DNA of 64,000 bases from an uncultured Clostridia bacterium (GTDB lineage: Bacteria > Bacillota > Clostridia > Lachnospirales > Lachnospiraceae). This document shows, in pieces, positions 3,311 through 23,904 of the stretch. The stretch lies in contig CAMSGQ010000015.1 in assembly GCA_947058385.1 (NCBI GenBank), forward strand, positions 7,692 to 71,691, given 5' to 3'. A program made the translations under genes and the position numbers. Every line of letters begins with the position of its first letter. Within the stretch, counting starts at the first letter, position 1. The notes beneath the pieces are model-generated. The model was not told the DNA's origin, did not search any database, and worked only from the letters and a program-made list of their open reading frames with translations.

Positions 3311-3311
3311 T

Positions 3312-4100: not shown

Positions 4101-4177
4101 AAAATTCAACAAGCACAACAACTTTAGCAGAAGAAGTGCTATCCTCCTTTTCCTTTGCATTACAACTAATTGACGCC

Positions 4178-7944: not shown

Positions 7945-7990
7945 ACAATCCACCTCAAACCAATTATTATTTTTTACTAAAACTTCAAAT

Positions 7991-9058
7991 TCATAAAATT
8001 CTTGAAACAACATTCCCCTCTTCCAATATTTGAATCGTCCTAACAATTGCTTCTTCTATCCCAAACTGAGCCCTCCATCCAAGTGCTTCTAATTTATCCG
8101 TTGAAAGAACTGCACAATTCATTTTATTTTGATATTCTTCCCCCTGCTTCTCTCTTTCCATTCTCACTAATACCCCTGCCTTTAACGCAATTTTTTCTGC
8201 AAACTCCCGAATCGATACCCGATTGCTCATATTCGAAACATTATAAACCTCTCCATCCACTCCTTTTGTTAATAAGCTACAAATTCCACTCACACTGTCA
8301 CTCACATAACAATACGACCGAATCTGCTTTCCCTCTGTATGTAACACAATATCTTGTTTTTCCACTGCTTTCTTTATAAATACCGCATGAATCCGACTAT
8401 CTTTTATCTGAAACGTAGAACCAAATGTATGTGATAGCCTTGCAATTACAATTGGAATATTCCACTGTTTAAAATAAGCCATACATAAATTTTCAGCTGC
8501 CCTTTTACTAACTGGATATGCATTCCTTACACAACGACTATCCATATATCCGCTTTCTTCTTCCTTCCAAGCAAACCCATTCTCTCCCGTTTCTTCTCCA
8601 ATCCCATACACTTCTCCAGTCGATATATAAATCATTTTTTCCTTAACAAACTCACGGGCATATCTTAAAAGATAAACTGCACTAAGCAAGTTTCCTTCTG
8701 CTGTTTCAACTGGACTTTCTTGAAACTTTTTTGGATCTGCATTACCTGCTAAATGAATGAGATAATCCACTTCTACTTGAAAAGAAATCTCCTCTTTTGC
8801 ATCATAAGGCAAAAAAGAAATATATTCTTTTTCTCCAAACCTTTGCTTTATTTTCTCTTTCTCTCTGCCACATAAGAATAACTGACAATGATACTGATAT
8901 GCTTCATTTAGATAAATCAACACATCCACGAAATGTGATCCAATACTTCCTGTTGCCCCTGTTATAAGAAAACTTTTTCCATATAATTGGCTGACTGATA
9001 AAATATTTTTTTTCACTGTCTCTAAATCTTCTCTATATAATTCACTCCAATTCTCCAT
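7991..9058 (-). CDS. NAD(P)-dependent SDR-family epimerase/dehydratase/reductase (candidate reductase half of a split Bcs1-type CDP-ribitol synthase)
   Basis: Rossmann ITGATGSIGSHFVDVL, catalytic Y..K region (YPVSKRAAE). Confidence 0.7.
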   Translation of the reverse strand: MENWSELYREDLETVKKNILSVSQLYGKSFLITGATGSIGSHFVDVLIYLNEAYQYHCQLFLCGREKEKIKQRFGEKEYISFLPYDAKEEISFQVEVDYLIHLAGNADPKKFQESPVETAEGNLLSAVYLLRYAREFVKEKMIYISTGEVYGIGEETGENGFAWKEEESGYMDSRCVRNAYPVSKRAAENLCMAYFKQWNIPIVIARLSHTFGSTFQIKDSRIHAVFIKKAVEKQDIVLHTEGKQIRSYCYVSDSVSGICSLLTKGVDGEVYNVSNMSNRVSIREFAEKIALKAGVLVRMEREKQGEEYQNKMNCAVLSTDKLEALGWRAQFGIEEAIVRTIQILEEGNVVSRIL

Positions 9059-9083
9059 TTTATAGTTTCTCCAATCTTTTCTT

Positions 9084-9794
9084 TTATTTTAACCAGCCAG
9101 CCTTTTTCTCTGTTAATAACGCTTTAAAAATTTCAATATCTTCCACAGTTGTTAATTTAATATTTTTTTCTGATCCCAATGACAAATATAATTTTTCTCC
9201 AAGCTCTACAAACATTGTACAAGTCGCAATCGAAGAAAAAATTCCCTGTTTTAATGCCTCTTTATGTGCCCAAACTAGTTTCCCCAATGTAGCCGCCTGT
9301 GGAGTCTGTGTTCTTTTCAAATTATCACGTGGTACTTGTACCTCTGATGTACTACCATCTTTCGTCTTTAACATCGCTTCTGCACAGGGAATAACAGAAA
9401 CAGCATTTCCAAACTGTGTACATACCCTAATACAATCCGAAATAATCTCTTCTGACACCATTGGCCGAATCGCATCATGAATTAAAACAATATCTTCCTC
9501 TTTATGAATTTTTTTTATCTCATTAATCCCATTTCGAATTGACTCTTGTCCATTTTCTCCACCAGATACAATGCTTTCTAATTTATCTATTCCAAACTGC
9601 TTACAATAAGCTCTTAGTATTTCATGCCATCCTTCCAAGCATACTACTACAATACTATCAATATTGGGATGTTTTTGAAATGCTTCTAAAGTATAAATAA
9701 TCACTGGTTTATCATAGACATTTAAAAACTGTTTTGGAATATCTTGGTGCATCCGTTGCCCAGAACCTCCTGCAATTACTAACGCAATATTCAT
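9084..9794 (-). CDS. IspD/TarI-family cytidylyltransferase (likely ribitol-5-phosphate cytidylyltransferase)
   Basis: 236 aa, N-term LVIAGGSGQRM...PKQF typical of IspD/TarI. Confidence 0.75.
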   Translation of the reverse strand: MNIALVIAGGSGQRMHQDIPKQFLNVYDKPVIIYTLEAFQKHPNIDSIVVVCLEGWHEILRAYCKQFGIDKLESIVSGGENGQESIRNGINEIKKIHKEEDIVLIHDAIRPMVSEEIISDCIRVCTQFGNAVSVIPCAEAMLKTKDGSTSEVQVPRDNLKRTQTPQAATLGKLVWAHKEALKQGIFSSIATCTMFVELGEKLYLSLGSEKNIKLTTVEDIEIFKALLTEKKAGWLK

Positions 9795-9806
9795 CTTTTT
9801 CTCTCC

Positions 9807-10805
9807 TTATCGCTCAATTAATTCAATTAAAAATGAATTTGCTAGTGCTAAAAAGCAAATTCTTTTTTTAAAATATACTGACTCTTTTAATGGAGATACT
9901 ACCTTTGCTCTGCTTCGTTCGAATATTTCTATCGCTTTTTCTATATTTCCAACAAAAAATGCAACATGATAAAGATGGATATGGTTCTTTTGATAAAATT
10001 CTAATGTTGTACAATTTGGTAAGTTTTCCAAAAGTTCTAATCTTGGAAAATTTTCGCAATTTCCATACCCTTTGCCAATCAAAAATTGCCCTTTTACTCC
10101 TTGTTCTAAATCTTGAAAGACACTTCCCTCACGAATATATCCTAAAATTTTATAGGAAAATATTTCCCGTTCCAGTTCTTTTGTTGCTACTCCAATATGA
10201 TGAAATTCAAACTCTCCAATTGCACAGCGCATATTTCTTACAAAAATCTTATATGCTTTTCTTTCCAATTCCTCTTGTATCTGATTGTAGTAATACTCTC
10301 TATCTACATACTGCTCCACAGCATGATAAGTTCTTCCATTTAAAATAAAAAAATTTTCTAATCTTCCTCTTGTCTTTTGATGAATAGATTCATGAAACGC
10401 TATCACAGATCGATTTTCTTCTACTGTTCGGCAAAATAATTCTTCTAATCCAATTCGATTAAATGCCGCTTTATAGATTAAGTCAACACTTTCTACTGCT
10501 CCCATTGAGCCCTGTTTGATAACCCATCTTCCCCATTCTGCTTTGTTTCCTTCTCTATCATAGATCCCAATCAATCCTTCTCTTTCTCCTGTTATCTTAT
10601 TTTCAATCACAAAATAATAATCCTCTTTTCGAGTAAAATACGCTTCAATCCACTTTTCCTGCATCAATTGATCGTTTGGTATCTCATGAATATATTGATT
10701 TCTTTCCTTATCCTCTAAACGAACTTCCAGTATAAAAGATGCATCCATAAGTGTAACTGGACGTATTTTATAAGCATATCCTTCTACTGTTATTGTGTGT
10801 TTCAT
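9807..10805 (-). CDS. GNAT-family N-acyltransferase fused to VOC (glyoxalase/methylmalonyl-CoA-epimerase-like) domain
   Basis: Start moved to MKHTITVEGY (10805) so it does not overlap the carrier-protein gene. GNAT-like N-half; C-half HHIGVATKELERE ... HVAFFVGNIEKAIEIF typical VOC. Confidence 0.55.
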   Translation of the reverse strand: MKHTITVEGYAYKIRPVTLMDASFILEVRLEDKERNQYIHEIPNDQLMQEKWIEAYFTRKEDYYFVIENKITGEREGLIGIYDREGNKAEWGRWVIKQGSMGAVESVDLIYKAAFNRIGLEELFCRTVEENRSVIAFHESIHQKTRGRLENFFILNGRTYHAVEQYVDREYYYNQIQEELERKAYKIFVRNMRCAIGEFEFHHIGVATKELEREIFSYKILGYIREGSVFQDLEQGVKGQFLIGKGYGNCENFPRLELLENLPNCTTLEFYQKNHIHLYHVAFFVGNIEKAIEIFERSRAKVVSPLKESVYFKKRICFLALANSFLIELIER

Positions 10806-10849
10806 AAATAAAATCCTTTCTCTTTTCGTAGGCAAAAATTCTTGGACAA

Positions 10850-11071
10850 TTAGGATACCTTTTTTTGTAATGCACAAATAATTTCTGTAATTGTAGTAAT
10901 TTGAGCAAGTTCCTCCTGCTGAAATAAAATCCCATATTCCTCTTCTAATGCTAAAATAATTTCTATATGATTCATAGACCCCCACATCTTTGGTGTATCC
11001 AAATTTTCAAACAATTCTTTTTTTTCTAATTTTGTTATTTCTGTTATAATTTCAATCACTTTTTCTTTCAT
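10850..11071 (-). CDS. acyl/peptidyl carrier protein (PP-binding)
   Basis: 73 aa; WGSMNHIEIILALEEEYGI resembles carrier-protein Ser motif (DltC/ACP-like). Confidence 0.6.
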   Translation of the reverse strand: MKEKVIEIITEITKLEKKELFENLDTPKMWGSMNHIEIILALEEEYGILFQQEELAQITTITEIICALQKKVS

Positions 11072-12653
11072 TTTTTATTCCCTCTATCTCTATTTTTATA
11101 ACGTCCTTTGGCAATATATAATTCATCTCTTGTTCCTGATTGATATATTCCTTAGCATATTGATTTAAAAATTTTTCAGCCGGCGTATTTCTTTCTCCTT
11201 TTTGAAATAAAATCTTTACTTTTTTTAAACCAAACAAATCCTGTGCAATCGAAATAGAACCCAAAACAATGGCATCTTCTATTCCTCTTCCTAACGCCCT
11301 ACAGCTTATAAAACATTCTTCTAAAATCAAGAAATCGGTTGCCTTTTTTATTACACAAACTCCAATTAACCCACTATCGGACAATCGATCCTGTAGATTT
11401 ACTGCTATTACTATCATCTCTTTTCTTTGCATCCGTTCTTTTATTTCCTGAATGGAATACCTTTTATAAGAAAAAATAAATTGATTGGTCTTATTTGCCA
11501 ATTCCGAAATTCGCACTACACTTTCCAAAGGATTACACTGATACTGTAAAGTAATCTGCAAAGATTTTAAATATGCTTCTTTTGATAAGGTTTGTTTTAT
11601 CTTTTGTCGTTTTTGATTTTCTTTGATATCCTCTGAGCGAAGCTGATCCTCTTTCTGCATGGATAATTTCATAAGACCTGGATAATTTGCCAATATCGTA
11701 TTTGTTATCTGCGGATTCTCACTTGCCTGAATCACATGAATATCAGGATACTTTGCTAAAACTGATAAAATTTCTCCAATATTATCATCGATAAATAATA
11801 TACTATCGACATGAATATTTAAAAAATCTGCAATTTTTTCAATCATGCTTGACTTTTCTTCCCAAGAAGCACAGATTAGACTAAAATCCTCTTTTTTAAT
11901 AAGAAAATCTTTCCTTTGATCCAACAATTTCTCTACGTCTTGCTTTTCATTTTTACTTGCAATACAAATAAAAAATCCCTGATTAGCAAAATTTTTTAGC
12001 TGTTTTTGAAAAGAAAGATACGCTTTCGAAACTTCTATCTTTTCTATTCCATCTTCTCCTAAAATCCCTCTATATAAAGTATGATCTAAATCTACAACAA
12101 TCGCCTTTAGCATAGGCTTTAACAGTGCAGGAAGATATCGTAATCCTAAGTCTTTTGCTATCATCATACAGGCCTTTGCACTCAATCTCGTTCCTGATAT
12201 CTTTTCCAAACGTTCATCGAAATAGGCATTTCCTAATATTTCCTCTATTGAGTGAAAATCATAAAAAACCACATGTTGATATTCCATTGTTTTTCCTAAT
12301 AAAAGACACAAAATGGGTCTTTTATAAATAGAAAGCAATGTCTTTAACCGTTCTTTTAAAAATTCCTCTATCGCATCTATTTGATATCGTTTCATATCTA
12401 ACCAAAGAATCAGCATATCCGTATTTGAATTAAGTTGAAAAAAAGACAAACTATCATCATAATCACTATATAAAAAATTTACTTGCATCTTTGCATAATC
12501 AAGATAAGCAGATATCGTATGTTCTACTAATTCAAAAGAATGATTTCGATAAACTTGTATTTGATATCTTTTCTGTTCTTTGGAAGCAGTATAGGTTACT
12601 AATTCCTTTCTGCTTGGTTCTTTTTCAAATAAAAATTTTTGTAATTCCAACAT
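11052..12653 (-). CDS. FkbH-like HAD-superfamily (IIIC) protein with C-terminal acyltransferase-like domain
   Basis: 533 aa; HAD motif I AIVVDLDHTLY; motif IV LFIDDNIGE; size and architecture typical of FkbH-like domain proteins. Confidence 0.6.
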   Translation of the reverse strand: MLELQKFLFEKEPSRKELVTYTASKEQKRYQIQVYRNHSFELVEHTISAYLDYAKMQVNFLYSDYDDSLSFFQLNSNTDMLILWLDMKRYQIDAIEEFLKERLKTLLSIYKRPILCLLLGKTMEYQHVVFYDFHSIEEILGNAYFDERLEKISGTRLSAKACMMIAKDLGLRYLPALLKPMLKAIVVDLDHTLYRGILGEDGIEKIEVSKAYLSFQKQLKNFANQGFFICIASKNEKQDVEKLLDQRKDFLIKKEDFSLICASWEEKSSMIEKIADFLNIHVDSILFIDDNIGEILSVLAKYPDIHVIQASENPQITNTILANYPGLMKLSMQKEDQLRSEDIKENQKRQKIKQTLSKEAYLKSLQITLQYQCNPLESVVRISELANKTNQFIFSYKRYSIQEIKERMQRKEMIVIAVNLQDRLSDSGLIGVCVIKKATDFLILEECFISCRALGRGIEDAIVLGSISIAQDLFGLKKVKILFQKGERNTPAEKFLNQYAKEYINQEQEMNYILPKDVIKIEIEGIKNERKSD

Positions 12654-12666
12654 AAATACGCCACCT

Positions 12667-13770
12667 TTATCTTCTATAATGATTGATTGTTTTTATGACA
12701 TATTCCATCTGAGATTCTGTCATTCCATAATAGATTGGAATACTAAGAATACTGTTGCATAAACGCTCCGTTAAAGGAAATTCCCCTTTTTTAAATTTCA
12801 ATGTCTGATATGCTTTTTGTTTATGAATTGGAATGGGATAATGAATATTGGTTTCGATATTTTGCTCACTTAAATAATTCCTTAATGCATCTCGTTCTTC
12901 ACAGTATAATACAAATAAATGCCAAACACATTGGAACTTTTTATCTTCCTGCAAAGGAAGCCGAATCAATGGATGAGAAATTTCTTCTAAATATCTTTTT
13001 GCGATCCTCTTTCTTTCTTCATTCCAACGATCTAATTGCTCTAATTTTACTAATAAAAAAGCTGCTTGCATTTCATCTAACCTAGAATTTGTCCCCTGGT
13101 AAGTATGGATATATTTTTTTTCTGAACCATAGTTTCTTAACATCCTTACTTTTTTTGCCAATTCCAAATCATTTGTTACAACCATTCCAGCATCTCCTAA
13201 TGCTCCCAAATTCTTTCCTGGATAAAAACTAAATCCTGCAGCATCTCCTAATATTCCAACTTTTTTTCCTTGATACATCGCTCCATGTGCTTGTGCAGCA
13301 TCTTCAATGACTTTTAAATGATAGTTTCTAGCAATTGCAAGAATCGGTTCCATATCAGCCGATCTTCCATATAAATGCACTGCAATAATCGCTTTTGTTC
13401 TATCTGTAATCTTTTCCTCGATTTGTGCTGGATCTATTGTATAACTTTCTTCTTCTGGTTCTACCAATACAGGAATTGCCCCTGTATGGGATACAGCAAG
13501 AGCTGTTGCAATAAATGTATTAGCTGGAAGAATTACCTCATCATTCGCACCAATTCCCATTGCAAGTAAAATAAGATATAAGGCATCCAAACCGGTTCCA
13601 CACCCAATTGCAGCCTCTGCATTACAAAAAGAAGCAAATGCTGTTTCAAATTTTTCTAATTCTTTTCCCATAATAAAACTATTGTTTTGGTACACCTCTA
13701 AAAATTTTTCTTTTATTTGCATTTCGATTTCCTGATGCATTTTCTCCAAGGAGACAAATGGTACTCTCAT
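12667..13770 (-). CDS. DegT/DnrJ/EryC1/StrS-family PLP-dependent sugar aminotransferase
   Basis: 367 aa; [22 protein letters not shown] (PLP-Lys region). Confidence 0.85.
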
Positions 13771-14174
13771 ATTGTCCCTCCCTTTACCATTCCAAGAAAT
13801 TGATCATAATTTCGTATGTAATCAGATTCATCATAATATTCCGATGCCAATACCATTAAAACAGCATCTTCTGAAAAATCATACATTTCACGCCACATAG
13901 AATGGGCAATATATAAACCCTCATAGGGTTTTTCTAATGACACAATTTTCTTTTCTATTCCATTATCAAGAAGAATTTTACAAGATCCATGAATACAAAC
14001 TAAGATCTGCTCTAAACATTTATGTGCATGAAACCCCCGATGAATTCCATCTTTTGTTTCATACATATAATATACCCGCTTAATCTGAAACGGAATATCT
14101 TTTAACTCTTCTAGTGCTACCAGTTGTCCTCTTTCATCACCATGTTGTTGAAACATATATTTTAAAATTTGCAT
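13767..14174 (-). CDS. FdtA/WxcM-like sugar 3,4-ketoisomerase (cupin)
   Basis: 135 aa; [13 protein letters not shown]...[22 protein letters not shown] typical of dTDP-4-keto-6-deoxyhexose 3,4-isomerases. Confidence 0.7.
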
Positions 14175-14192
14175 ATGCCTTATCCTTCCATT

Positions 14193-15137
14193 TCAATTGT
14201 TCTTTTTCCTTCTTTTTTTCCTATAGACACGCAATGCATGAATCGGATAGCGAATTGAAATCAACAGTTGTTTTATTCGATTTTTTTGATACTTTTTTTG
14301 ATAAAAAAGAATTCTCCCTTCTCCTTTATGCCAATATTTCCATTTTTGATAGGAAAACCACCGTTTCAAAGGATATTTTGTATACTTTATAATCTCATTT
14401 CGAAAAATCAAATCGGAATCTTTTTCATACTGTTGATTAAAATTGATGGGTGAACTCATTCCTCCCGACCGATATTGAATCACAATTCGATCCCAAAATT
14501 CAATGTTTTCCCCCTTTCTTGTTAAAGATAAATAAGTAGGATAATCATCAACTAACTGGTATTTTTTACTGCAAATACCATATTTTTTTATATTCTCCCT
14601 ACTTCTAGCTGTACAACAGCCAAATATAAAATTTCCCTTTGTCAATTCCTCAAATAATTGTCTTGCATCTTTTTGCAAAAGAATCTCTACTTGTTCCTTC
14701 GTTGGAAGTAATCCCTGATATTGTTTCATCTCTTTATCATAAACTGCTCGATAAGCTGTTATAATTCCAGAACCCCTTTTTAAAAACTCACAGACCCATT
14801 CTTCTAATACAAGTGCATCATAAAAAATATCATCTCCTGCCAAATGAAAAATATAATTTCCCTTTACATACTGTAATGCAGAATAATAAGATTTTACTGT
14901 TCCTAGATTCGTCTTATTTTGATAAACAACATACTCTTCAATATTTGTCCTCTTTTTCTTTTCTATATAATTTTCTATCTCTTGTAAGGAAAAAGAAGAG
15001 GAAGCATCATCAAAAATCAAATATTGAATTCTTGGATAGGTTTGCATTAAAACAGAATCGATCGTTTCTTTTAAATGCAGACTATAATAAGCAAGTGTAA
15101 TTACGGTTATTAAATCCTTCATTTTTACTCTTTCCAT
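14193..15137 (-). CDS. glycosyltransferase family 2
   Basis: ITVITLAYYS...YLIFDDASS (DXD); start may be MKDL at 15122. Confidence 0.6.
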   Translation of the reverse strand: MERVKMKDLITVITLAYYSLHLKETIDSVLMQTYPRIQYLIFDDASSSFSLQEIENYIEKKKRTNIEEYVVYQNKTNLGTVKSYYSALQYVKGNYIFHLAGDDIFYDALVLEEWVCEFLKRGSGIITAYRAVYDKEMKQYQGLLPTKEQVEILLQKDARQLFEELTKGNFIFGCCTARSRENIKKYGICSKKYQLVDDYPTYLSLTRKGENIEFWDRIVIQYRSGGMSSPINFNQQYEKDSDLIFRNEIIKYTKYPLKRWFSYQKWKYWHKGEGRILFYQKKYQKNRIKQLLISIRYPIHALRVYRKKRRKKNN

Positions 15138-16018
15138 TCTAGATTATACTTCTGATGAAATCCCATATCCTGTTTCCATGCATCCCAAATTGCATCTTTT
15201 ATCAACTGACGTATTTTTTTCTTTTGAAAAATATATCTGATAAAGTAATAACCACTTTGTAAAATGGCCTGCTTCTTTCCCATATGCTGAATATAGGCAT
15301 GAATTTTATTTCTGATATTATAATAAGTTTTCCATGTAAACCCTGTAGTTAAATTGGTATCATGTATTATTTTTATACTAGGTATACAGCAAATTTTTCC
15401 CTGCTTTCTTATTCGATAACTATGTTCACTGTCATCATATGCGATAAAATAATCTCGATTTGGCAAACCCGCCTGTATAAGTGCTTCTTTTGAAAGTGCT
15501 GTTCCAACATAAGAAAAAAGAGTAATAAAAAAAATATCCTTTTTATATTCTTCTTCTGATACTCTCTCTTCTAAAATTCCATACCATTTTTTAATCACTC
15601 GCCTTCGATGCCAAGTATCAATTTTCCCTTTTCTCCAAACACTGCCACAAATTGCTGCTACTTTCTTTTTCTTTAATCGCTCAATCCACTTTTCTAAAAT
15701 TTCGATTCCATCTAATGCAATATAAGCATCATCATCCGCTACCCAAATCCATTCTGCATCCAGATCTTTTGCAAACTGTAATCCTTTATAATATCCGCCA
15801 CTTCCTCCCAAATTTTCTTTTAATATAATACCTTTATGTTGTATTTCTTCTTGTCTTTCCATCCAATCTTCTATATAGTTTGCTGTTCCATCTGTTGAGC
15901 CATTATCTACAACAAGAATATAAGCAGGTTTTCTATTTTGGCTTTCATAGGAATTTAATGCCTTTTTTAATTTTTCTATCCGATTATAAGTAACTATCAC
16001 AACTCCGATTTTATTCAT
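15125..16018 (-). CDS. glycosyltransferase family 2
   Basis: GVVIVTYNR...ILVVDNGSTDGT. Confidence 0.8.
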   Translation of the reverse strand: MNKIGVVIVTYNRIEKLKKALNSYESQNRKPAYILVVDNGSTDGTANYIEDWMERQEEIQHKGIILKENLGGSGGYYKGLQFAKDLDAEWIWVADDDAYIALDGIEILEKWIERLKKKKVAAICGSVWRKGKIDTWHRRRVIKKWYGILEERVSEEEYKKDIFFITLFSYVGTALSKEALIQAGLPNRDYFIAYDDSEHSYRIRKQGKICCIPSIKIIHDTNLTTGFTWKTYYNIRNKIHAYIQHMGKKQAILQSGYYFIRYIFQKKKIRQLIKDAIWDAWKQDMGFHQKYNLEWKE

Positions 16019-16976
16019 AACTTTCTCCTACTAGAAAAAACATCATTCCTGTATAAAAATCACCTAATACACTTCTAAATGAAATATAATTTAAATGAAA
16101 TAAATTATAAAAAAAGAGAGAGAAGATTCTATTTCTTGAATAAAATTCTTTTCGTTTCTTTTGAAAAGCAATCGCTTTCTTTAAATATGGTATCTGCGTA
16201 CGATGTGTCAAGGCTGTTGCCTGTAAGGAGTGTTCTATTTCTGTTATCATATTTTCTCTTTTCTTTTTTCTGGCAGCAGATTTTCTAACAGCAGAAAGGG
16301 AAAATGTGATTCCAACTGTATTTTTTGTATGTAATCGATACCTAGTTAATACGATATTTAGAAAATATAATCCATTGTAGTAGGCTGCCTCTTGATTTAA
16401 TTGCCAATCATGAGGAAGACCTTCCCAATATTTTGAACTACTGATTTGATTCCATAAAACTTTCCTTATCGCCATAGCCATTCCCGGATATTTAGGATGT
16501 CTTAAAAAGGATTTCCAATTTATCTTTTTACTTTTTTGAGAAAAAAATCGATAAAACCAATCTTCTTTTCTTCTCTTTCCATTTTCATCAATAAGCCGAT
16601 ATGCTGTAGACAATGCTAATATATTTGGATAGCGGTCAAAAAAGTTTTTGCAGACTTCTATCTTATTTTTTTCCCAGACATCATCTTGATCTGAGAGAAA
16701 GATCAGATCTCCCTTTGCAAGTCTTAAACCATTCCGAAAATTTTTTGCATATCCTAGTCGCTTTGAATTACAATAAAAATAAATTGCAATCTTTGTTTTT
16801 TTTTGAAAAGAGCGAATAATTTCTGATGTAGAATCCGAAGAATGATCATCACTAATAATAATTTCATCTGGCTGATAAGTCTGATTACAGATAGATTCTA
16901 ATTGTTCTTGTAAATATCGTTCTCCATTATAAGTTGCCATCACAACAGAAATCATGTTTTCTCTCCTTATCTCCAA
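16011..16976 (-). CDS. glycosyltransferase family 2
   Basis: ISVVMATYNGERYL...IIISDDHSSDST. Confidence 0.8.
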   Translation of the reverse strand: MEIRRENMISVVMATYNGERYLQEQLESICNQTYQPDEIIISDDHSSDSTSEIIRSFQKKTKIAIYFYCNSKRLGYAKNFRNGLRLAKGDLIFLSDQDDVWEKNKIEVCKNFFDRYPNILALSTAYRLIDENGKRRKEDWFYRFFSQKSKKINWKSFLRHPKYPGMAMAIRKVLWNQISSSKYWEGLPHDWQLNQEAAYYNGLYFLNIVLTRYRLHTKNTVGITFSLSAVRKSAARKKKRENMITEIEHSLQATALTHRTQIPYLKKAIAFQKKRKEFYSRNRIFSLFFYNLFHLNYISFRSVLGDFYTGMMFFLVGESYE

Positions 16977-17713
16977 TATTTTTTGACTCCATTATATAAA
17001 TGAAGTCCTGTATAAAATAATGCCTGTGATATACTCATTCCCATATAGCGATGCATCCCATAAGTCATCTTTGCTGACTTAAATCGATTTCTTGATTTTC
17101 CCTCTTTGCTTAAACGGTAAGAAACTAATGGTTCATTAATGCCATATGCTTTTTTGTATTTTTTCAAACACTTTAACCAAACCATATAATCCTCATGATA
17201 CTCATCATGTTCCATAGGAAACTCTAATGCAGCCTCTCTTTTTATCAATACAGAAGAACAAACAATGCGATTTCCTTGTAAAAGTTCTTGGTAGGTCAGA
17301 TCGGTTTGTACTGAAATAATTTTATGTAAATCTTCCCCTTGATGGCTATATAATTTTCTTGCAGTATAACAAAGTGCCATCTTTTTTTGTTGCATCAAAG
17401 CCAACTGTTTTTCTAATTTTTCTTGTTCCCACCAATCATCCGCATCCAAAAAAGCAATATACCTTCCTTTTGCTTTCCAAACTCCAATATTTCTTGTTCT
17501 AGCAACTCCTAAATTACTTGCATTTTTTAAATAAATTACTCGGTTGTCCATACAATACTTTTTAACAATATTCTCTGTTTGGTCTTTCGAAGCGTCATCA
17601 ATAATAATCAGTTCTAACTTTACTTTTTGTATTAATACAGATTGTATTGCCTGTTCGATAAATTTTTCTGCATTATAAGCTGGCATAACAACAGAAATTA
17701 GATTCTCTTCCAT
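16967..17713 (-). CDS. glycosyltransferase family 2
   Basis: ISVVMPAYNAEKFI...IIIDDASKDQT. Confidence 0.8.
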   Translation of the reverse strand: MEENLISVVMPAYNAEKFIEQAIQSVLIQKVKLELIIIDDASKDQTENIVKKYCMDNRVIYLKNASNLGVARTRNIGVWKAKGRYIAFLDADDWWEQEKLEKQLALMQQKKMALCYTARKLYSHQGEDLHKIISVQTDLTYQELLQGNRIVCSSVLIKREAALEFPMEHDEYHEDYMVWLKCLKKYKKAYGINEPLVSYRLSKEGKSRNRFKSAKMTYGMHRYMGMSISQALFYTGLHLYNGVKKYWR

Positions 17714-17733
17714 TTTTCTCCTTACTCTTTTTC

Positions 17734-18078
17734 TTATTTTAAATTCATAAAAAATACTCCTACAATAATAAAAGCACCTCCAATCAAAGAAAAAATAGTA
17801 ACTCTTTCATGAAAATATAAGATTGCAATTAGGATTATCATAATATTTGTAATTCCACCTAAGATAGGATAAATATAGCTTAAATCAAATTTAGAAATAA
17901 CAACTGTATACAATAAAAAACTAATGATATAACAGCAATATCCAATAATAGATGGCAAAGTAAACTTTAAATGAGCAATTTGAATCCATATTTTTAGCCC
18001 TTCCTGACTCCCTATTTTCATAAAAGTGATACCCAATATCGAAAATATTAAATACATCAGACAAAATAGATACTTCAT
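17734..18078 (-). CDS. small 4-TM membrane protein, SMR/EamA/ArnE-ArnF-like (candidate lipid-linked sugar flippase subunit)
   Basis: 114 aa, four hydrophobic helices; lies in a glycosylation module. Confidence 0.45.
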   Translation of the reverse strand: MKYLFCLMYLIFSILGITFMKIGSQEGLKIWIQIAHLKFTLPSIIGYCCYIISFLLYTVVISKFDLSYIYPILGGITNIMIILIAILYFHERVTIFSLIGGAFIIVGVFFMNLK

Positions 18079-18429
18079 TTACATTTTCTCCAATTCTCTT
18101 ACTCTTTTTTCCAATATTGCATGGTTTTGTGTTAAATTTCGAATTCGTTCTGTTTGTTTTGAAACAATTGCTGTAAGTGACATAGAGATTAATAATGTAA
18201 AAAAGATTCCCACTAAAAATAACCCATACATTGGCGTTTCAATTCCGACCAATTTAACAAATATTTCTAAAAAGGAAGGAAACAATACCAACATTCCCAT
18301 AATAAAACCAGAAAACAGCCACAGCAAAATATACTTTAATGCTAACATTTTTTTCTTTATAAAATAAAGAATGCACCAAAAATATAAAATTACTACCCCC
18401 CCAAGCAATACTCTTAAGTAATTTGACAT
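18079..18429 (-). CDS. DUF2304-like small membrane protein with C-terminal coiled coil
   Basis: 116 aa; 3 TM then KQTERIRNLTQNHAILEKRVRELEK; commonly adjacent to GtrB-like GT2. Confidence 0.45.
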   Translation of the reverse strand: MSNYLRVLLGGVVILYFWCILYFIKKKMLALKYILLWLFSGFIMGMLVLFPSFLEIFVKLVGIETPMYGLFLVGIFFTLLISMSLTAIVSKQTERIRNLTQNHAILEKRVRELEKM

Positions 18430-18431
18430 TA

Positions 18432-19130
18432 TTATTTCCTCCTATATGTAAAACAGCAAATTATGATAGCAATAGAAACTTTTATCATATAATAAATGGA
18501 TTTTCTTAAATTAATAGAACTTACTCCATTTTGTCTTTCATGCATCACTACTGGTATTTCTTGTATCCTTGCTCCATTTAGACTAGCTGATACAATTGCT
18601 TCTGGCTCTGGATAATCTGATGGATAATCTGATACATAAAACTGAATGTACTTGTGGTTTACTGCACGAAATCCGCTTGTTACATCCTTTATTTTTGCTC
18701 TACAACATAGTTGAATCAATTTACTTAAAAAAGCAATACCTGCTCTTCTTGTTGTGGAGGATTGAAAGCCCTTTTTTTCAAGAAATCTTGATCCAATTAC
18801 AATATCTGCTTTTCCCTCTAAAATTGGCTGTATCGTTTTTCCTATATATGCTGGATCATGCTGCCCATCTCCATCATGTTGAATTGCAATATCATATCCA
18901 TATTTTAAGGCATATTTATAACCTGTCTGTATTACTCCTCCAATTCCCAAATTAATAGGAAGAGAAATAAAATTATAATTATTTTTTTCGCATACCTCAA
19001 TTGTATTATCCTTTGAGCAATCATTTATAATTAAATAATCTATCTCAGGTATTGATTGTTTTAAATTTTTTACTACACTTTCTATATTCTTACTTTCATT
19101 ATAAGCAGGTATAATTGCTAAAACTTTCAT
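18432..19130 (-). CDS. GT2 polyprenyl-phosphate glycosyltransferase (GtrB/DPM1-like)
   Basis: Start moved to MKVLAIIPAYNESKNI (19130), immediately after upstream stop; LIINDCSKDNT DXD. Confidence 0.7.
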   Translation of the reverse strand: MKVLAIIPAYNESKNIESVVKNLKQSIPEIDYLIINDCSKDNTIEVCEKNNYNFISLPINLGIGGVIQTGYKYALKYGYDIAIQHDGDGQHDPAYIGKTIQPILEGKADIVIGSRFLEKKGFQSSTTRRAGIAFLSKLIQLCCRAKIKDVTSGFRAVNHKYIQFYVSDYPSDYPEPEAIVSASLNGARIQEIPVVMHERQNGVSSINLRKSIYYMIKVSIAIIICCFTYRRK

Positions 19131-21010
19131 TGTACATTCATTCTTTCTTCTAGTTTTTCTTTTTGTTGATGAAAATCGAAAAGTGCATAACATATTAAAA
19201 ATGGTGTAATAGCCATAATTGGTAAAGAATAACGAATACTTCCATTTACAGGGCTTGCCATATTTATTAATAAACATAACAACGCTGGTATAAAAAACAC
19301 CAATTTCCTATAATTTTTATTTGTAAAAATAAAGAATACCGCTAAAATTAATAACCAAGTATAACATGCTGGCCGATAAAGCAAATTTATAATTGGAAGT
19401 TTATATTGAATAGAATCAAAATTTTCAATAAGTTTTCTTCCATCCACTCGGTTATCAAGAAAATAAAAATCAAAATCTCCACGGTTTACATAAGAATAAT
19501 TGGTGGCCATTACATAATTACCAATGCTTGTATAGGGAAGACTATTAAGATAAAAATAGCGATATGTACCATGTAGAAAACTTTCTATATAACAAATAGG
19601 ATGTCGCCAAAGTTGCTTCCACCATACAATAAGATATGCTTTTATTTCCTCTGTTGTATTAAAACGCCGGCTTTTTACTGGATCAGAAATATCTGGATTA
19701 TATAGATTTGCTAAGTTCTCGTAATCTAATACTTTCGAAATAATCTCTTTTTCTTTTTCTGTTACATCATTTGGATATTCCTTTACATATCTTGCAGTTT
19801 GTTGAAATGGAACAGATAATGCTTCTCTTATATTTCCTTCTTGAATTCCAAAAACCGAAAGAAAAATAAAATGAAAGACAGCATAAATACCCAATACTCC
19901 AATTAAACTTTCTAACAAATATTTTCTATTTCTTTTAATAAAAAAAACCATACTCAATAAAGTTGGAACTACAATATAGATTCCGTTATTTCTTAATAAA
20001 CAAACCAATAAAGAAGTCGCTACCACTCCTAAGATATGAAGAAAAGAGAACTTTACCTTTGTTATTTCTATATCCATTAAATAAAGAATCCATAAAAGTA
20101 CCGCTAAATAATAAAGGACATCTTTAATTAATGTAATACTATAAATCTGCCAAATACTAAAAAAAGAAAAATATAATAAGATTCCCATTCTCCATTTCCA
20201 TACAATATTCCATTTTTTTAATAAGCAGATACTGTATGCAATAACAGCTGCTCCCACTAGGCTTTGAAACAAAGAATAGAAAAATATTCCTGCATTATCA
20301 CTCCCCCCTATCCATGTTCCAATTTTAAAAATAATCCCCATTATCACGGTAGAAAATACAGGGTGTATATTGCTCCACTCTATACTTCCAATATAAAAGT
20401 CTAACTGTAAAAATCCATCATAAGTTACAACACCAGGATAGAAATAAAATAAATAAGGAATTCGAAATAAAAAATAACATAAAAATGAGAAAATAAAACA
20501 ATGCTTATCTTTTGTGTTATTTTTTAAACAGTTTGTTTTAATTCTATATTTATTATAAAAAATCGATATAGACAACAAAACCATAGAAAAGAAACAAAAA
20601 TATCCTGCCGCAAACAAAAGGGAAAATATAAAATGTTTTAAATTTGAACTTATAAAAGAGATAGTTCCAGCATCTTTTAAACATTTTCCAATCATCATAA
20701 AAATAGAAAAAATACCAGAAAAAATACAATTTATTTTAGATATCTGCCACATATTCTTTTTTAGAAAAAAGAAATAGCATCCTGCTGTTCCAATCGACAA
20801 GAAAGAAGTCTGTAAATCAGAATTTTGTAACAAATAACAAATCTGTGCTACAGCGGCTACAAGCCAAGAATTACTTTCCCCTATTAGATGCTGATAAGTT
20901 TCTTGCATAAGGTTTTTATAAGGAGTGGTAAACGCTAATCCTGTCAAAATTCCCATAAAAACACATAAAATGACAAGACTGCTTTCTCCCATTCTCCTTT
21001 TTTCTTTCAT
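19127..21010 (-). CDS. polytopic membrane protein, probable GT-C-fold glycosyltransferase (YfhO/Gtr-type-specific-like)
   Basis: More than 12 TM helices with loops; start moved to MKEKRRMGESS (21010) with RBS GGAGAG; follows GtrB-like and small membrane-protein genes. Confidence 0.45.
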   Translation of the reverse strand: MKEKRRMGESSLVILCVFMGILTGLAFTTPYKNLMQETYQHLIGESNSWLVAAVAQICYLLQNSDLQTSFLSIGTAGCYFFFLKKNMWQISKINCIFSGIFSIFMMIGKCLKDAGTISFISSNLKHFIFSLLFAAGYFCFFSMVLLSISIFYNKYRIKTNCLKNNTKDKHCFIFSFLCYFLFRIPYLFYFYPGVVTYDGFLQLDFYIGSIEWSNIHPVFSTVIMGIIFKIGTWIGGSDNAGIFFYSLFQSLVGAAVIAYSICLLKKWNIVWKWRMGILLYFSFFSIWQIYSITLIKDVLYYLAVLLWILYLMDIEITKVKFSFLHILGVVATSLLVCLLRNNGIYIVVPTLLSMVFFIKRNRKYLLESLIGVLGIYAVFHFIFLSVFGIQEGNIREALSVPFQQTARYVKEYPNDVTEKEKEIISKVLDYENLANLYNPDISDPVKSRRFNTTEEIKAYLIVWWKQLWRHPICYIESFLHGTYRYFYLNSLPYTSIGNYVMATNYSYVNRGDFDFYFLDNRVDGRKLIENFDSIQYKLPIINLLYRPACYTWLLILAVFFIFTNKNYRKLVFFIPALLCLLINMASPVNGSIRYSLPIMAITPFLICYALFDFHQQKEKLEERMNVQ

Positions 21011-21181
21011 ATTATTTTCTCTCCTTTCAGAAATTCCTCTTTTGGTACTTTTTATTTTTATACCTCTCAGTACAACCGAAATTTCTTTCTTCTTTGTTTC
21101 TGTCAATTATATGAAACGGGCGGTACTGTACCCTCAAATATCATGTAATACATCATATTCTTATCCATAGTCTCCCTGGAT

Positions 21182-21211
21182 TTTATATTGAACAGTAAAA
21201 ATCACTGTCAA
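21182..21211 (-). promoter_or_regulatory. sigma70-like promoter (TTGACA-N18-TATAAA) for the GT-C/GtrB glycosylation operon, located 30 nt beyond the tnpB-like stop
   Basis: Minus-strand reading TTGACAgtgatttttactgttcaaTATAAAat. Confidence 0.4.
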
Positions 21212-21240
21212 TTTTTATTATAAATAACTCATCTAAATTT

Positions 21241-22452
21241 TTATTCTTTCCTATTTTCTTCTTTATAATAGGATAAAAATCTTTTTCCTACATTTCTAGC
21301 GGTATTTAATCCACTATTTCCTTGATGTCCATTCGGGCATAAAAAAAGCTGTCCTCCATAATAATTTTGACTTGGTATATGTCCTGTATTATAACGTTTA
21401 ATTTTTGCACCACATTCATTACAGCAATCTGAAATATGATAAGTTGGAACACGGCTTACAAGAATCCCCTCTGAAAAAGCCTTATATTTTAAATACCGAA
21501 TGACACGTCTGCCAATCCATTCAAAATTATCCGTTTTTAAATACCCCTTTTTCGAAAAATCAATTGTTTTTTGATAATTAGGAATCACAATTATTGTTAC
21601 TCCATTTGCCTTGCAAAACTCTATTATTCTACGACTTGTTCTGTGTGCATAGAATTGATTTAGATTTTCAATTTTTTTCAAGCAATTCTCTTTTTCTTTT
21701 CCTATTTCTCTTTCCCATTTCCTTTTCCATTTTTTCTTTTTTGCTTTTAATTCCAATCCACCTTGAAAAAACATCGTCTTTTCTAAATCACCATTTTTCC
21801 TTAGAATCGCTCCAACTGCAATACTATTATTTCCTGGAAATGATAAAGCAAGTACTTTTTCTACCTCTTTTATTTGCTCTTTTACAGGATGAATTCCTAC
21901 TATTTGTTTTCGAATTGGTATCTGTAAATATGCCTGTTTTTGACTTGCATCAATAATTGGTGATAATACTTCTACATTCTCTGGTAATTGACGCCCAGTA
22001 AAACGATAACGACTCCATTTCCATTTTTCTTTTGTATAAACTTTTAATAAAATAGAATCTTCTTTTCGCTCTTTATACATTCCTTTATAGTAAACTGGAG
22101 CAGCAAAAAAATTTTCTGCTTTAAATAAAATATTGCTTCTTGCCATACCAATTGCACAATTAATGGCAGCTCTTCTAAAATACAATGGGATTACTGGAAA
22201 ATCAATAAAAGGAAAACTGGCTTTTTCTTTCGCTTTTTGCATCTCCTTCGTTCCTATTGTGGCTACTTCTAATTTACGCATTAAATTAAAATTACTTATT
22301 GTAAGCCACTCTGGATATGTAGTTAATAAATCATAATAATGTTTTACTACTTTGTTATATAAAATTCTTGTTTCAAAAAGCCAATCCAAATGCTTATCAT
22401 AAAAACGAAAACGATAGGTTATTGTGATTGTTCCATTCTTTTCTTCTACCAT
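21241..22452 (-). CDS. TnpB (IS200/IS605 OrfB)-like protein with all three RuvC catalytic residues substituted: candidate nuclease-dead, TldR-like RNA-guided regulator
   Basis: 403 aa; N-term YRFRFY...RILYNKVV (OrfB N-term); RuvC-I position VLALSFPGNNSIAVG lacks Asp; RuvC-II TIIVIPNYQ lacks Glu; zinc-finger CCNECG...CPNGH followed by NSGLNTARNV instead of D.D.NAA.NI. Confidence 0.75.
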   Translation of the reverse strand: MVEEKNGTITITYRFRFYDKHLDWLFETRILYNKVVKHYYDLLTTYPEWLTISNFNLMRKLEVATIGTKEMQKAKEKASFPFIDFPVIPLYFRRAAINCAIGMARSNILFKAENFFAAPVYYKGMYKERKEDSILLKVYTKEKWKWSRYRFTGRQLPENVEVLSPIIDASQKQAYLQIPIRKQIVGIHPVKEQIKEVEKVLALSFPGNNSIAVGAILRKNGDLEKTMFFQGGLELKAKKKKWKRKWEREIGKEKENCLKKIENLNQFYAHRTSRRIIEFCKANGVTIIVIPNYQKTIDFSKKGYLKTDNFEWIGRRVIRYLKYKAFSEGILVSRVPTYHISDCCNECGAKIKRYNTGHIPSQNYYGGQLFLCPNGHQGNSGLNTARNVGKRFLSYYKEENRKE

Positions 22453-22482
22453 ATGAAATTCCTTTTTTAGTTTCCTATTGTT

Positions 22483-22515
22483 ACTCTATGTTTTCATAAA
22501 GTATGCTACTCTATG
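22483..22515. repeat. 29-nt palindromic hairpin element (13-bp stem, 3-nt loop), copy 1, ~30 nt upstream of the tnpB-like start
   Basis: gttttcataaagtaTGCtactctatgaaaac. Confidence 0.7.
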
Positions 22516-22521
22516 AAAACA

Positions 22522-22558
22522 AAAATTCTCCATTAAAAATAGAGAATTTTTGTTTTTT
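22522..22558. terminator. bidirectional terminator-like hairpin (9-bp stem) with flanking A/T tracts
   Basis: aaaattctc-cattaaaaata-gagaatttt followed by tgtttttt. Confidence 0.4.
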
Positions 22559-22568
22559 GACCAAAAAA

Positions 22569-22656
22569 TTGACGATCCATTTCTTATTTTTTCTTTTCTT
22601 TCAATAGAGATTTTGTTATCAAATCAATCCTTGTTTTTGACGATTTTTTTGACGAT
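22569..22656 (+). repeat. three copies of TTGACGAT (two as tandem 13-mer tttttgacgattt) in the tnpB-like/pyrD intergenic region
   Basis: 22569-76, 22637-44, 22649-56. Confidence 0.6.
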
Positions 22657-22910
22657 TTATTTTTATTTAAAAAAACGGGAAAAGGGAAACACTTTTATTT
22701 GAATATTTTTTGAATATAGATTCTTCTAAATTAAGAAACAATAGATAGCACTCTCTGCAAATTATTCGACAATAAATGTCATTGCCAATAAATAATTTTT
22801 GAAAAAAATATAAAGCTTTTTTACTATTTGGAGATTGGAACAACAAAATATCTACTATTTTCCAATCTCCATCAAAAATCGTCATTTCTTTTTACAAAAA
22901 GAATTCTCTC

Positions 22911-22939
22911 TTGACAAATCCCTTAAGAAAGGTTATCAT
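22911..22939 (+). promoter_or_regulatory. near-consensus sigma70 promoter on plus strand (TTGACA-N17-TATCAT) reading into the copy-2 hairpin and antisense to the pyrD 3' end
   Basis: ttgacaaatcccttaagaaaggttatcat; also part of the inverted repeat TTGACA...TGTCAA. Confidence 0.45.
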
Positions 22940-22969
22940 GTCAAACAGAGATATAACCCAATCAAACTT

Positions 22970-23000
22970 ATTTTCATAGAGTAGCATACTCTACGAAAAC
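22970..23000. repeat. 29-nt palindromic hairpin element, copy 2 (2 mismatches to copy 1), immediately after the pyrD stop
   Basis: ttttcatagagtaGCAtactctacgaaaac. Confidence 0.7.
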
Positions 23001-23001
23001 T

Positions 23002-23904
23002 CTATTTTACACATCCTACTAACTCTCCAATCTCATTTACCCCATGTTTTTTCATATACTGTTCTATTCCTTCTATAACTTCCAAAGTAGCAGTAGGACA
23101 AAAGAAATTTGCTGTTCCAACAGAAACTGCTGTCGCACCAGCTAGTATAAATTCTATCGCATCTTCTGCTGTTTGGATTCCTCCCATTCCAATCACGGGA
23201 ATCTTTACTGCATTTGCTGCCTCGTAAACCATACGTACTGCCACTGGTTTTATTGCTGGCCCTGATAAGCCACCTGTCTTATTTGCTAAGGCAAATGTTC
23301 TCTTTTCAATATCAATTTTCATTCCAGTCAATGTATTAATCAAAGACAACGCATCTGCTCCCCCTGCCTCTGCTGCCTTTGCCATATCTGCAATACTAGT
23401 AACATTTGGACTTAATTTCATAATAATTGGCTGTTTTGCACGTTTTTTCAATTCTTTTGTAATCGCTTCTACTGCTTTTGCATCTTGTCCAAAAGCAATT
23501 CCCCCTTCTTTTACATTTGGACAAGAAATATTGATTTCCATTAGATCAATTTCTTCTTCTGCAAGACATTCTACTACTTCACAATAATCTTCTGTTGTCT
23601 TTCCACATACATTTACAATAATCTTTGTATCATATTGTTTTAAAAATGAAATATCTCTCTTTCGAAATACATCGATTCCTGGATTTTGCAGTCCAATTGC
23701 ATTTAACATTCCACCATAAGTTTCCGCAATTCTTGGTGTTGGATTTCCAGGCCACGGTACATTTGCTACCCCTTTTGTCACAACTGCTCCTAATCGATTT
23801 AAATCTACAAAATCACAATATTCTGCTCCCGATCCAAATGTTCCAGAAGCTGTCATAACTGGGTTTTTTAATTCTACACCTGCAATGTTTACTTTCGTAT
23901 TCAT
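23002..23904 (-). CDS. pyrD: dihydroorotate dehydrogenase catalytic subunit (class 1B)
   Basis: MNTKVNIAGVELKNPVMTASGTFG...; FMN-binding TIM barrel motifs. Confidence 0.9.
   Translation of the reverse strand: MNTKVNIAGVELKNPVMTASGTFGSGAEYCDFVDLNRLGAVVTKGVANVPWPGNPTPRIAETYGGMLNAIGLQNPGIDVFRKRDISFLKQYDTKIIVNVCGKTTEDYCEVVECLAEEEIDLMEINISCPNVKEGGIAFGQDAKAVEAITKELKKRAKQPIIMKLSPNVTSIADMAKAAEAGGADALSLINTLTGMKIDIEKRTFALANKTGGLSGPAIKPVAVRMVYEAANAVKIPVIGMGGIQTAEDAIEFILAGATAVSVGTANFFCPTATLEVIEGIEQYMKKHGVNEIGELVGCVK

Follow-up and report, generated by a model that had tools for sequence, protein, structure and literature searches.

Inverted palindromic sites as the probable ends of a promoter switch ahead of a TnpB-like-led glycopolymer operon in gut Clostridia

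What is the function of two near-identical palindromes that bracket a short segment between pyrD and a TnpB-like gene in a gut bacterium? We have studied this question in a stretch of 64,000 nucleotides from an uncultured Clostridia bacterium of the Lachnospiraceae (contig CAMSGQ010000015.1, positions 7,692 to 71,691), called the window below. The genes flanking the segment all lie on the minus strand, with pyrK-pyrD (23002-24686) on the upstream side and the TnpB-like gene (21241-22452), a DUF6020 gene and further genes on the other. We consider it highly probable that the palindromes, denoted inverted repeats IR-A and IR-B, are the paired inverted core sites of a tyrosine-recombinase inverton, i.e., an invertible DNA segment, controlling the glycopolymer operon that is led by the TnpB-like gene, and that the switch is in its OFF orientation here. 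A preliminary description of the sequence had listed a regulatory target among several possible roles of the pair, and this was the right direction.

The palindrome pair noted in that description is real, and both elements were found, with slight corrections to the coordinates (Table 1). The distal copy lies where it had been placed, at 22970-23000, its end 1 nt from the stop codon of pyrD. The proximal copy is also present, but at 22490-22520 rather than 22483-22515, and 37 nt rather than 30 nt upstream of the ATG (22452) of the TnpB-like gene; its sequence is GTTTTCATAAAGTATGCTACTCTATGAAAAC. Each is a near-palindrome of 27-31 nt that folds into a stem of 13-15 bp with a 3-nt loop, in agreement with the hairpins proposed earlier. 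The folding as single-stranded DNA has z-scores of -4.6 to -7.5, with none of 200 shuffled sequences equal. The close similarity of the copies had been recognized correctly, but they are inverted relative to one another rather than direct copies, with loops TGC and GCA. Together they form an inverted repeat with arms of 33 nt that are 91% complementary and separated by 445 nt, and the exact core common to both is 20 nt. Allowing up to 3 mismatches, the 29-mer occurs in only two places in the 64 kb, IR-A and IR-B (0 of 100 shuffles matched).

Table 1. Positions of the switch and its neighbours in the window (a point in the strand column marks features listed with no strand)
Feature	Position	Strand	Remarks
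IR-A, proximal recombination site	22490..22520	.	core 22492-22518 = TTTCATAAAGTA-TGC-TACTCTATGAAA
IR-B, distal recombination site	22970..23000	.	core 22972-22998 = TTTCATAGAGTA-GCA-TACTCTACGAAA
Invertible interior, 453 bp	22519..22971	.	OFF orientation here; flipped contigs L019, L006
Predicted sigma-70-type promoter, TTGACA-17-TATCAT	22911..22939	+	11/12 consensus positions
Bidirectional terminator-like hairpin, non-promoter end of interior	22516..22556	.	-13 to -15 kcal/mol; z -5.5 to -6.7
Direct repeats CGTCAA-N6-7-(G/C)GTCA	22554-22582 and 22634-22662	-	candidate accessory or arm-type sites
72-aa open reading frame within interior	22667..22885	-	annotated by gene callers
Nuclease-dead TnpB/Cas12f-like gene, 403 aa, first after switch	21241..22452	-	PF07282
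Conserved structured RNA-like element, after TnpB-like gene	21060..21240	-	core 21060-21133
Glycopolymer operon, 18 genes on one strand, ~19 kb	2531..21106	-	family matches
pyrD, dihydroorotate dehydrogenase B, upstream neighbour	23002..23904	-	family match

Does the segment between the palindromes exist in both orientations? A lookup of contigs that encode exactly the same TnpB-like protein gave 23, all of one chromosomal context. In L001 and others the interior lies as in the window. L019, assembled by SPAdes from another sample, joins window positions 21105-22519 to 23000->22526 and has the whole interior inverted. In L006, a Logan contig from 5 samples, plus-strand positions 22928-23000 are joined to 22519->18241. 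The flipped interior in both contigs is 100% identical to that of the window save for the hybrid site, which in L019 is made by two positions, and the recombinant junction falls inside IR-A. Since the 31-mers at the junction cover unique flanks on both sides, and the shared core is only 20 nt, the junction is not a graph artefact. In L006 the promoter is followed by about 30 nt, the site, and 37 nt including the ribosome-binding site (RBS), up to the ATG of the TnpB-like gene. In the window the terminator hairpin stands before the TnpB-like gene, and the promoter faces the 3' end of pyrD.

Other strains of the same species (L009-L011) have neither the 20-kb glycopolymer operon nor its TnpB-like leader gene, and little of the switch (window 2531-22970). 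Downstream of pyrD they have half a site (GTTTTCGTAGAGTATGCTACT, then TTAAG...) and a degenerate remnant of the interior, next to the terminal ~30 nt of the gene for the ABC ATPase, with pyrE after it. The region appears to have been deleted or replaced, one of the two breakpoints falling within the recombination site.

The sites belong to a family with consensus TTTCATAGAGTA-NNN-TACTCTATGAAA that occurs in many gut Clostridia. Scanning one genome per species with the pattern TTTCATAGAGTANNNTACTNTANGAAA gave 12 loci in four Clostridia/Lachnospiraceae genomes, and a metagenome scan with a slightly different degenerate pattern gave at least 120 loci; a metagenome scan for the exact 20-mer core of the window gave no match. 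Sites with up to 6 arm mismatches almost always occur as inverted pairs 200-1650 bp apart, with one pair at ~3.2 kb, and at the same threshold there were no stray sites in ~260 kb. A genome-wide search had been suggested earlier, with the possibility that the 29-mer occurs only here. The exact 29-mer is indeed local, but the site family with its variable central triplet is widespread, and almost always paired. A literature search with the site sequence returned irrelevant matches only.

The arms of the sites are conserved, and the 3-nt centre varies from locus to locus. Among the matches listed, the central triplets are reverse-complementary in 92 of 96 pairs, equivalent to 44 of 48 distinct pairs, in about 18 triplet classes. 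On average 25.4 of 27 positions are identical between site A and the reverse complement of site B. The palindromes of L032 are each imperfect, but one site is exactly the reverse complement of the other; together with the general match of site A to the reverse complement of site B, this indicates a double-stranded recombination site rather than a single-stranded DNA hairpin. The core site comprises 12-bp inverted arms around an asymmetric centre, and a centre of odd length can never be symmetric. Judged by this pattern, the conserved unit is a double-stranded two-arm site, with the centre matched between partners, of the lox/dif type of architecture.

Inversion is also seen at a sister locus with GAT/ATC centres and a 401-bp interior that is common in human-gut metagenomes. 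Of 68 contigs among the matches listed, 33 have the reference and 35 the flipped orientation. The flanks are identical in both orientations, and identity to the reference reaches 100% in some of the flipped contigs. On one side lies a U32 peptidase, and on the other a protein of 184 aa with no known function, followed by Alg14-like and GT28 proteins. In contig L064 the 184-aa protein (MGRRPADLSGRKFGMLTAKY..., 8949-9503) is the first gene after the switch and has no Pfam or NCBIfam match; like the TnpB-like gene, it leads a switched polysaccharide locus. A few pairs at the GAT/ATC locus, in L056 (10360/10788), L075 and L139, have a one-base mismatch between their centres (CAT with ATC, or GAT with ATG), and may represent switches that are locked or hybrid. 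There are CAT/ATG alleles as well (L094, L099, L140).

What does the interior of the window switch contain? The TTGACA-N17-TATCAT promoter described earlier is present between the hairpins. It is predicted to read outward ~30 nt from IR-B. Its direction had also been given correctly, but the promoter flips, and its position antisense to pyrD is simply how it lies in the OFF state. The promoter block cTCTTGACAaat..TATgATgtcaaacag is also found ~29 nt from one site in L020, L032, L035 and L036, and the promoter end is kept in five TnpB-type invertons, window included. The same promoter-flip logic is seen in a paralogous pair of loci, one ON (L023) and one OFF (L024). At the other end of the interior, the second terminator-like hairpin that had been placed at 22522-22558 exists at 22516-22556; it is not conserved in other invertons.

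The interior also carries short direct repeats. The variant in the window is TCGTCAA-N6-GGTCA, its nearest copy 39 nt from IR-A. The general motif C(C/G)GTCA(A/G)-N5-8-(G/C)GTCA occurred 153 times inside inverton interiors and not once in 839 kb outside, among the matches listed. One copy of this CCGTCAA-type motif keeps a constant distance of 38-50 nt to one of the two sites and not to the other (for example in the interior at 8496-8896 of L064). The ~200-bp invertons that are linked to a shorter recombinase, of the type found in L025, lack the motif. The repeats are probably accessory or arm-type binding sites for the recombinase of the switch.

The segment had been called noncoding. Gene callers annotate a 72-aa open reading frame within it, and we have considered this as a gene and rejected it. 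It has no Pfam or NCBIfam match and no homologue outside the one species, and it is degraded in the relic of L009. The reading frame is probably not a gene, and to this extent the earlier term is upheld.

Several observations were made on the interiors of other loci. Within the interior of L032 (1.45 kb) there are inverted-repeat copies of a short repeat that is also found elsewhere on the contig. L034 has the same TnpB-like gene and operon as L032 (upstream of 8612), without the promoter end and the distal site and with another upstream neighbour; the switch may have been rearranged here, or locked OFF by a deletion. Three contigs (L021, L028, L029; see also L159) of one metagenome-assembled genome (MAG), MGBC128194, break off ~70 nt into the same interior sequence, beside a site whose centre is GAT in each case, and two of the three lead to different TnpB-like/polysaccharide loci. 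Either a promoter segment is common to these loci, or the assembly was broken by the inversion. In another MAG, Po218_bin30 (L023-L025), the site family is associated with non-polysaccharide surface genes, in ~200-bp invertons without the CCGTCAA motif. The genes encode lipoproteins with Flg_new/GLUG repeats and a thiol-activated-cytolysin-like protein, with the shorter recombinase adjacent.

Which enzyme might act on these sites? Homologous tyrosine recombinases (PF00589 + PF14659) adjoin the sites, or are located between them, in at least 26 loci. In L025 a site overlaps the 3' end of the recombinase gene, with a 201-bp inverton next to it, and L030 is a further example. Two sites ~1.4 kb apart enclose the recombinase gene in about a dozen distinct loci. 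Recombinase genes between inverted sites with matched centres were observed in L031 (5240-6682), L057, L061, L074, L076, L079, L150, L151, L154, L157 and L158; in such an arrangement the invertase gene would itself be a flippable cassette. The candidate recombinases are 33-61% identical to each other, fall under all specific NCBIfam cut-offs and are generically Xer-like. There was no match to a Hin-like serine recombinase in any locus or in the window.

Taken together, we can propose how the switch operates. A tyrosine recombinase encoded in trans would bind both 12-bp arms of each site, and strand exchange across the asymmetric centre (TGC/GCA) would flip the 453-bp interior. In the OFF state, as in the window, the promoter would direct transcription not to the operon but to the end of pyrD, in antisense, with the terminator hairpin shielding the TnpB-like gene from read-through out of the pyr genes. 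In the ON state the promoter would be located ~30 nt outside IR-A, from where it would read through the site, the RBS and the TnpB-like gene, and on into the ~19-kb operon. The terminator hairpin would then be situated just past pyrD, ending the pyr operon. The outcome would be phase-variable production of a surface glycopolymer.

A number of points weigh against this interpretation. At the window locus the ON state comes from just two contigs (L006 and L019), and the flipped junction was seen on the TnpB side only; among the contigs retrieved none has pyrD joined to the flipped interior. The two orientations come from different samples and contigs, not from one clone, and we infer reversibility within a single clone. 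There is no tyrosine recombinase gene in the 64-kb window, so the enzyme would act in trans; RecV of Clostridium difficile, a recombinase that is encoded far from its targets, provides a precedent. The presence in this genome of a recombinase for the window switch is also something that we infer. The promoter faces away from the operon in all five reference assemblies of TnpB-type invertons, as would be expected of loci that are mostly OFF. Lastly, the activity of the promoter and the co-transcription of the operon are predictions from the sequence.

Could the palindromes be ordinary elements of transcription or RNA structure, with copy 2 (IR-B) as the terminator of pyrD, copy 1 (IR-A) as a stem in a 5' untranslated region (5'-UTR), and the promoter giving rise to a small antisense RNA against pyrD? 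IR-B does have a weak terminator score for pyrD on the minus strand, but its T-tail is poor, and the sequence of the sites is kept across unrelated loci and genomes whatever the neighbours. The OFF-state promoter does face pyrD, and transcripts made in the ON state would carry the site as a stem-loop in their 5'-UTR, yet the central triplets co-vary within pairs only. Since the distal neighbour of the switch differs by locus (pyrD, purD, aldose epimerase or U32 peptidase), an antisense role specific to pyrD cannot explain the conservation. We therefore regard these functions as a very improbable account of the palindromes, and antisense transcription into pyrD as a possible side effect of the OFF state of the inverton.

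A slightly smaller probability is assigned to the suggestion that the two orientations are fixed polymorphisms between strains, arising from rare RecA events or replication template switching between short inverted repeats. This would accord with the observation of the orientations across samples rather than within a clone, and with the lack of a recombinase in the window. However, the shared core of 20 nt is very short for RecA, and the flipped and unflipped alleles are otherwise 100% identical. Moreover, the sister GAT/ATC locus is divided ~50:50 among the 68 contigs listed. The conserved architecture, the matched centres of odd length and the accessory motif at ~40 nt have no place in such a scheme, nor does the linkage of tyrosine recombinase genes to the sites in at least 26 loci.

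The least probable reading is that the palindromes are relic IS200/IS605 or palindrome-associated transposable element (PATE)-like subterminal hairpins, left by a tnpB-bearing transposon and recognized as single-stranded DNA by a Y1 TnpA: a TnpB-family gene is adjacent, the sites fold into clean hairpins, and the same hairpin lies ~50 nt upstream of TnpB homologues in other genomes, but both copies are upstream of the TnpB-like gene with none downstream at up to 6 mismatches, the exact protein is found in one chromosomal context only (23 contigs), the family heads polysaccharide operons in every locus examined and has lost its RuvC residues, the sites also flank promoters of unrelated genes with no TnpB nearby, and the pairs are inverted with matched centres, and invert. 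No tnpA is adjacent (the neighbours are pyrD and the DUF6020 gene), although no scan of the whole window for Y1_Tnp was made. A REP/BIME-like repeat was also rejected, there being 2 copies in 64 kb and elsewhere nearly always pairs that bracket one segment. The likeness to IS200/IS605, PATE or REP elements, and the relic transposon ends proposed in the preliminary description, are thus not borne out by the placement, copy number, orientation or behaviour of the sites, by their fixed context, or by the dead nuclease beside them.

The inverton being the preferred interpretation, what is the gene that immediately follows it? The TnpB-like protein matches PF07282, with matches to the NCBIfam models guided_TnpB and Cas12f2 below cut-off. 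An AlphaFold2 model (predicted local distance difference test, pLDDT, 84; predicted template-modelling score, pTM, 0.73) was compared with known structures by Foldseek, and the top matches over the full length are AsCas12f and TnpB ternary complexes, with E values of 1e-15 to 1e-9. Relative to the Cas12f chains, the RuvC-II glutamate is replaced by proline (IVIPNY) and the RuvC-III aspartate by glycine (NSGLNTARN); alignment with what we take to be the ISDra2 TnpB sequence gives the same losses. A change of aspartate to serine in RuvC-I is suggested by the position of the motif. PF27142 + PF07282 are found in every one of the more than 200 members of the family, and the few members with a name are labelled Lachnospiraceae. 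The family consensus at the RuvC-II and RuvC-III positions is IVVPNY and GNxALNTAKNI, from which the catalytic residues are absent.

The TnpB-like gene is the first gene of a glycosyltransferase/ABC-2 operon in the window, L021, L022/L036, L029, L032, L035, L159 and L161, and MGBC128194 has three TnpB-led loci. In L012/L017 (ERZ12802742) there are 14 substitutions within 90 nt of the TnpB-like coding sequence (nt 481-567), nearly all to A or G->T, which split the reading frame into pieces of 160 and 177 aa; the contig has 6x coverage, and the cluster of substitutions is probably sequencing error. The 90% cluster of the protein also holds several fragments of 160-200 aa.

A conserved, structured RNA-like element follows the TnpB-like gene. 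Its core comprises GGGTACAGYACCGCC, variable hairpins and GTTGTRCTGAGAGGTAT, after which come an A-rich stretch and the next gene's RBS. The element is present in 8 distinct TnpB-like loci (those in the window, L021, L022, L029, L032, L035, L036 and L161), including one, L161, that has no inverton, and it is absent from non-TnpB invertons. An Rfam scan of the window at gathering thresholds gave a single tRNA and no match to the element, and an E-value scan of 20900-23100 gave only hairpin matches at chance level, such as Yfr10 and SpR14. RNAalifold did not recover a long-range helix in the element. A 7-bp P1 helix that we specified by hand is 98% paired, compared with 14-52% for slid controls, with one compensatory change in two related sequences, which is weak evidence.

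The element may be a scaffold of the omega-RNA type, or it may serve the downstream gene as a leader in cis. The tail at its 3' end extends into that gene's RBS. A search for guide targets, using 11-mers of the 24 nt after the RNA against all loci of the same genome, gave only self-matches and A-rich matches of low complexity. We tentatively suggest, as a possibility that we think less probable than not, that the TnpB-like protein and the RNA form a ribonucleoprotein regulator that is made only when the promoter is ON, coordinating several phase-variable glycopolymer loci. Such a particle could silence sister loci, as an RNA-guided analogue of UpxZ of Bacteroides. Alternatively its target could be the long transcript of its own operon, on which it would work in cis as a factor for antitermination or translation, similarly to UpxY or EAR. 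If the suggestion is correct, it would be a new clade of the TldR type, and the first RNA-guided regulator wired to a DNA-inversion switch.

The operon downstream contains, in addition to the DUF6020 gene, five GT2 genes and genes for DUF2304, FdtA, DegT aminotransferase and GNAT proteins, an IspD-like cytidylyltransferase, an epimerase, a TagF-like Glyphos_transf protein, an acyltransferase, and an ABC-2 permease with its ATPase. By these family matches the cluster is a pathway of the wall-teichoic-acid or polysaccharide type. A polysaccharide operon is the downstream unit here and in every homologous (TnpB-type) locus examined.

How does this arrangement compare with known systems? Functionally the closest parallel is with the capsular-polysaccharide loci of Bacteroides, which have invertible promoters that depend on the serine recombinase Mpi, and UpxY (NusG-like) and UpxZ as their leading genes. 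In both, short inverted repeats surround a promoter segment before a long polysaccharide operon, there are several loci per genome, most loci are OFF, and the first gene of the operon resembles a regulator rather than an enzyme. The present loci differ in their host, which is a Firmicute (Clostridia), in the sigma-70 promoter of the TTGACA/TATAAT type, in the 27-bp palindromic sites with a variable 3-nt centre and a candidate tyrosine recombinase, and in having a dead TnpB/Cas12f-like protein and a structured RNA in place of UpxY/UpxZ.

Enzymatically the closest parallels would be the fimS switch of Escherichia coli (FimB/FimE), with inverted repeats of 9 bp, and the RecV switches of C. difficile, with non-palindromic inverted repeats of ~20 bp. 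There too a tyrosine recombinase (a candidate here) inverts a short promoter or 5'-UTR segment, and accessory sites lie inside the element. Unlike these, the present sites are palindromes complete with both arms, and a pair of sites often flanks the recombinase gene. The cores of loxP, FRT and dif have an asymmetric centre that sets the orientation and must match between partners. The present sites share with them the two inverted arms around a short asymmetric centre matched between partner sites, but the visibly variable centre is only 3 nt, inside a conserved GTA...TAC. With the ends of IS200/IS605 elements the sites share imperfect palindromes next to a TnpB-family gene; they differ in placement, copy number, orientation and behaviour.

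A survey of the hCom2 community describes an inverton group, 139, of which 32 of 33 members are from Clostridia, with inverted repeats of ~26 nt and interiors of ~200 bp. A tyrosine 'invertase group 35' is found within 5 kb of nearly all of these, and sequence reads show flipping in culture (PMC11892184). Group 139 is probably the site family of the window; the account of the group includes no matching of central triplets, no accessory repeats and no TnpB-like leader gene (PMC11892184).

For the TnpB-like protein, the comparison is with the TldR and dCas12f-sigmaE clades, which, in the papers themselves, are linked to oppF/dppD, fliC/flgL, csrA, rpoE, SpoIIE or RHH genes (10.1101/2023.11.30.569447; PMC13472631; PMC10691335). 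No dead clade linked to polysaccharide operons or invertons is reported in the main text of the TnpB surveys and TldR papers (10.1101/2023.11.30.569447; PMC13472631; PMC10691335). In common with these proteins, the protein of the window has the TnpB/Cas12f fold, has lost its RuvC residues and is immobile, and it has a steady association with non-transposon genes and a conserved non-coding RNA immediately downstream. In contrast to TldR, it is tied to a polysaccharide operon and an inverton, and the search for guide targets gave no match.

The kind of mechanism by which the switch would work is thus already known, and the site family is barely characterized. The module of a dead TnpB/Cas12f-like protein and an RNA as the leader of switched operons appears not to have been described, and the same appears to be true of the matched odd-length centre, the accessory repeats at fixed distance and the recombinase cassettes flanked by sites.

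Phase-variable surface polysaccharides are central to the evasion of phage and of the immune system by gut Bacteroides. Comparable systems in the abundant gut Clostridia/Lachnospiraceae have barely been characterized, and this locus offers a searchable site, TTTCATAGAGTA-NNN-TACTCTATGAAA, with a CCGTCAA accessory repeat ~40 nt inside one end, together with a candidate family of tyrosine invertases whose gene is often within a flippable cassette. The matched 3-nt centre may prevent the different switches of one genome from recombining with each other. There is also a warning for annotation, that such genes should not be labelled 'transposase', nor such palindromes 'IS ends' or 'terminators'. 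The most interesting lead is the role of the dead TnpB-like protein. If it is an RNA-guided regulator, the functions for which TnpB has been exapted would extend to the choice of capsule or cell-wall glycan.

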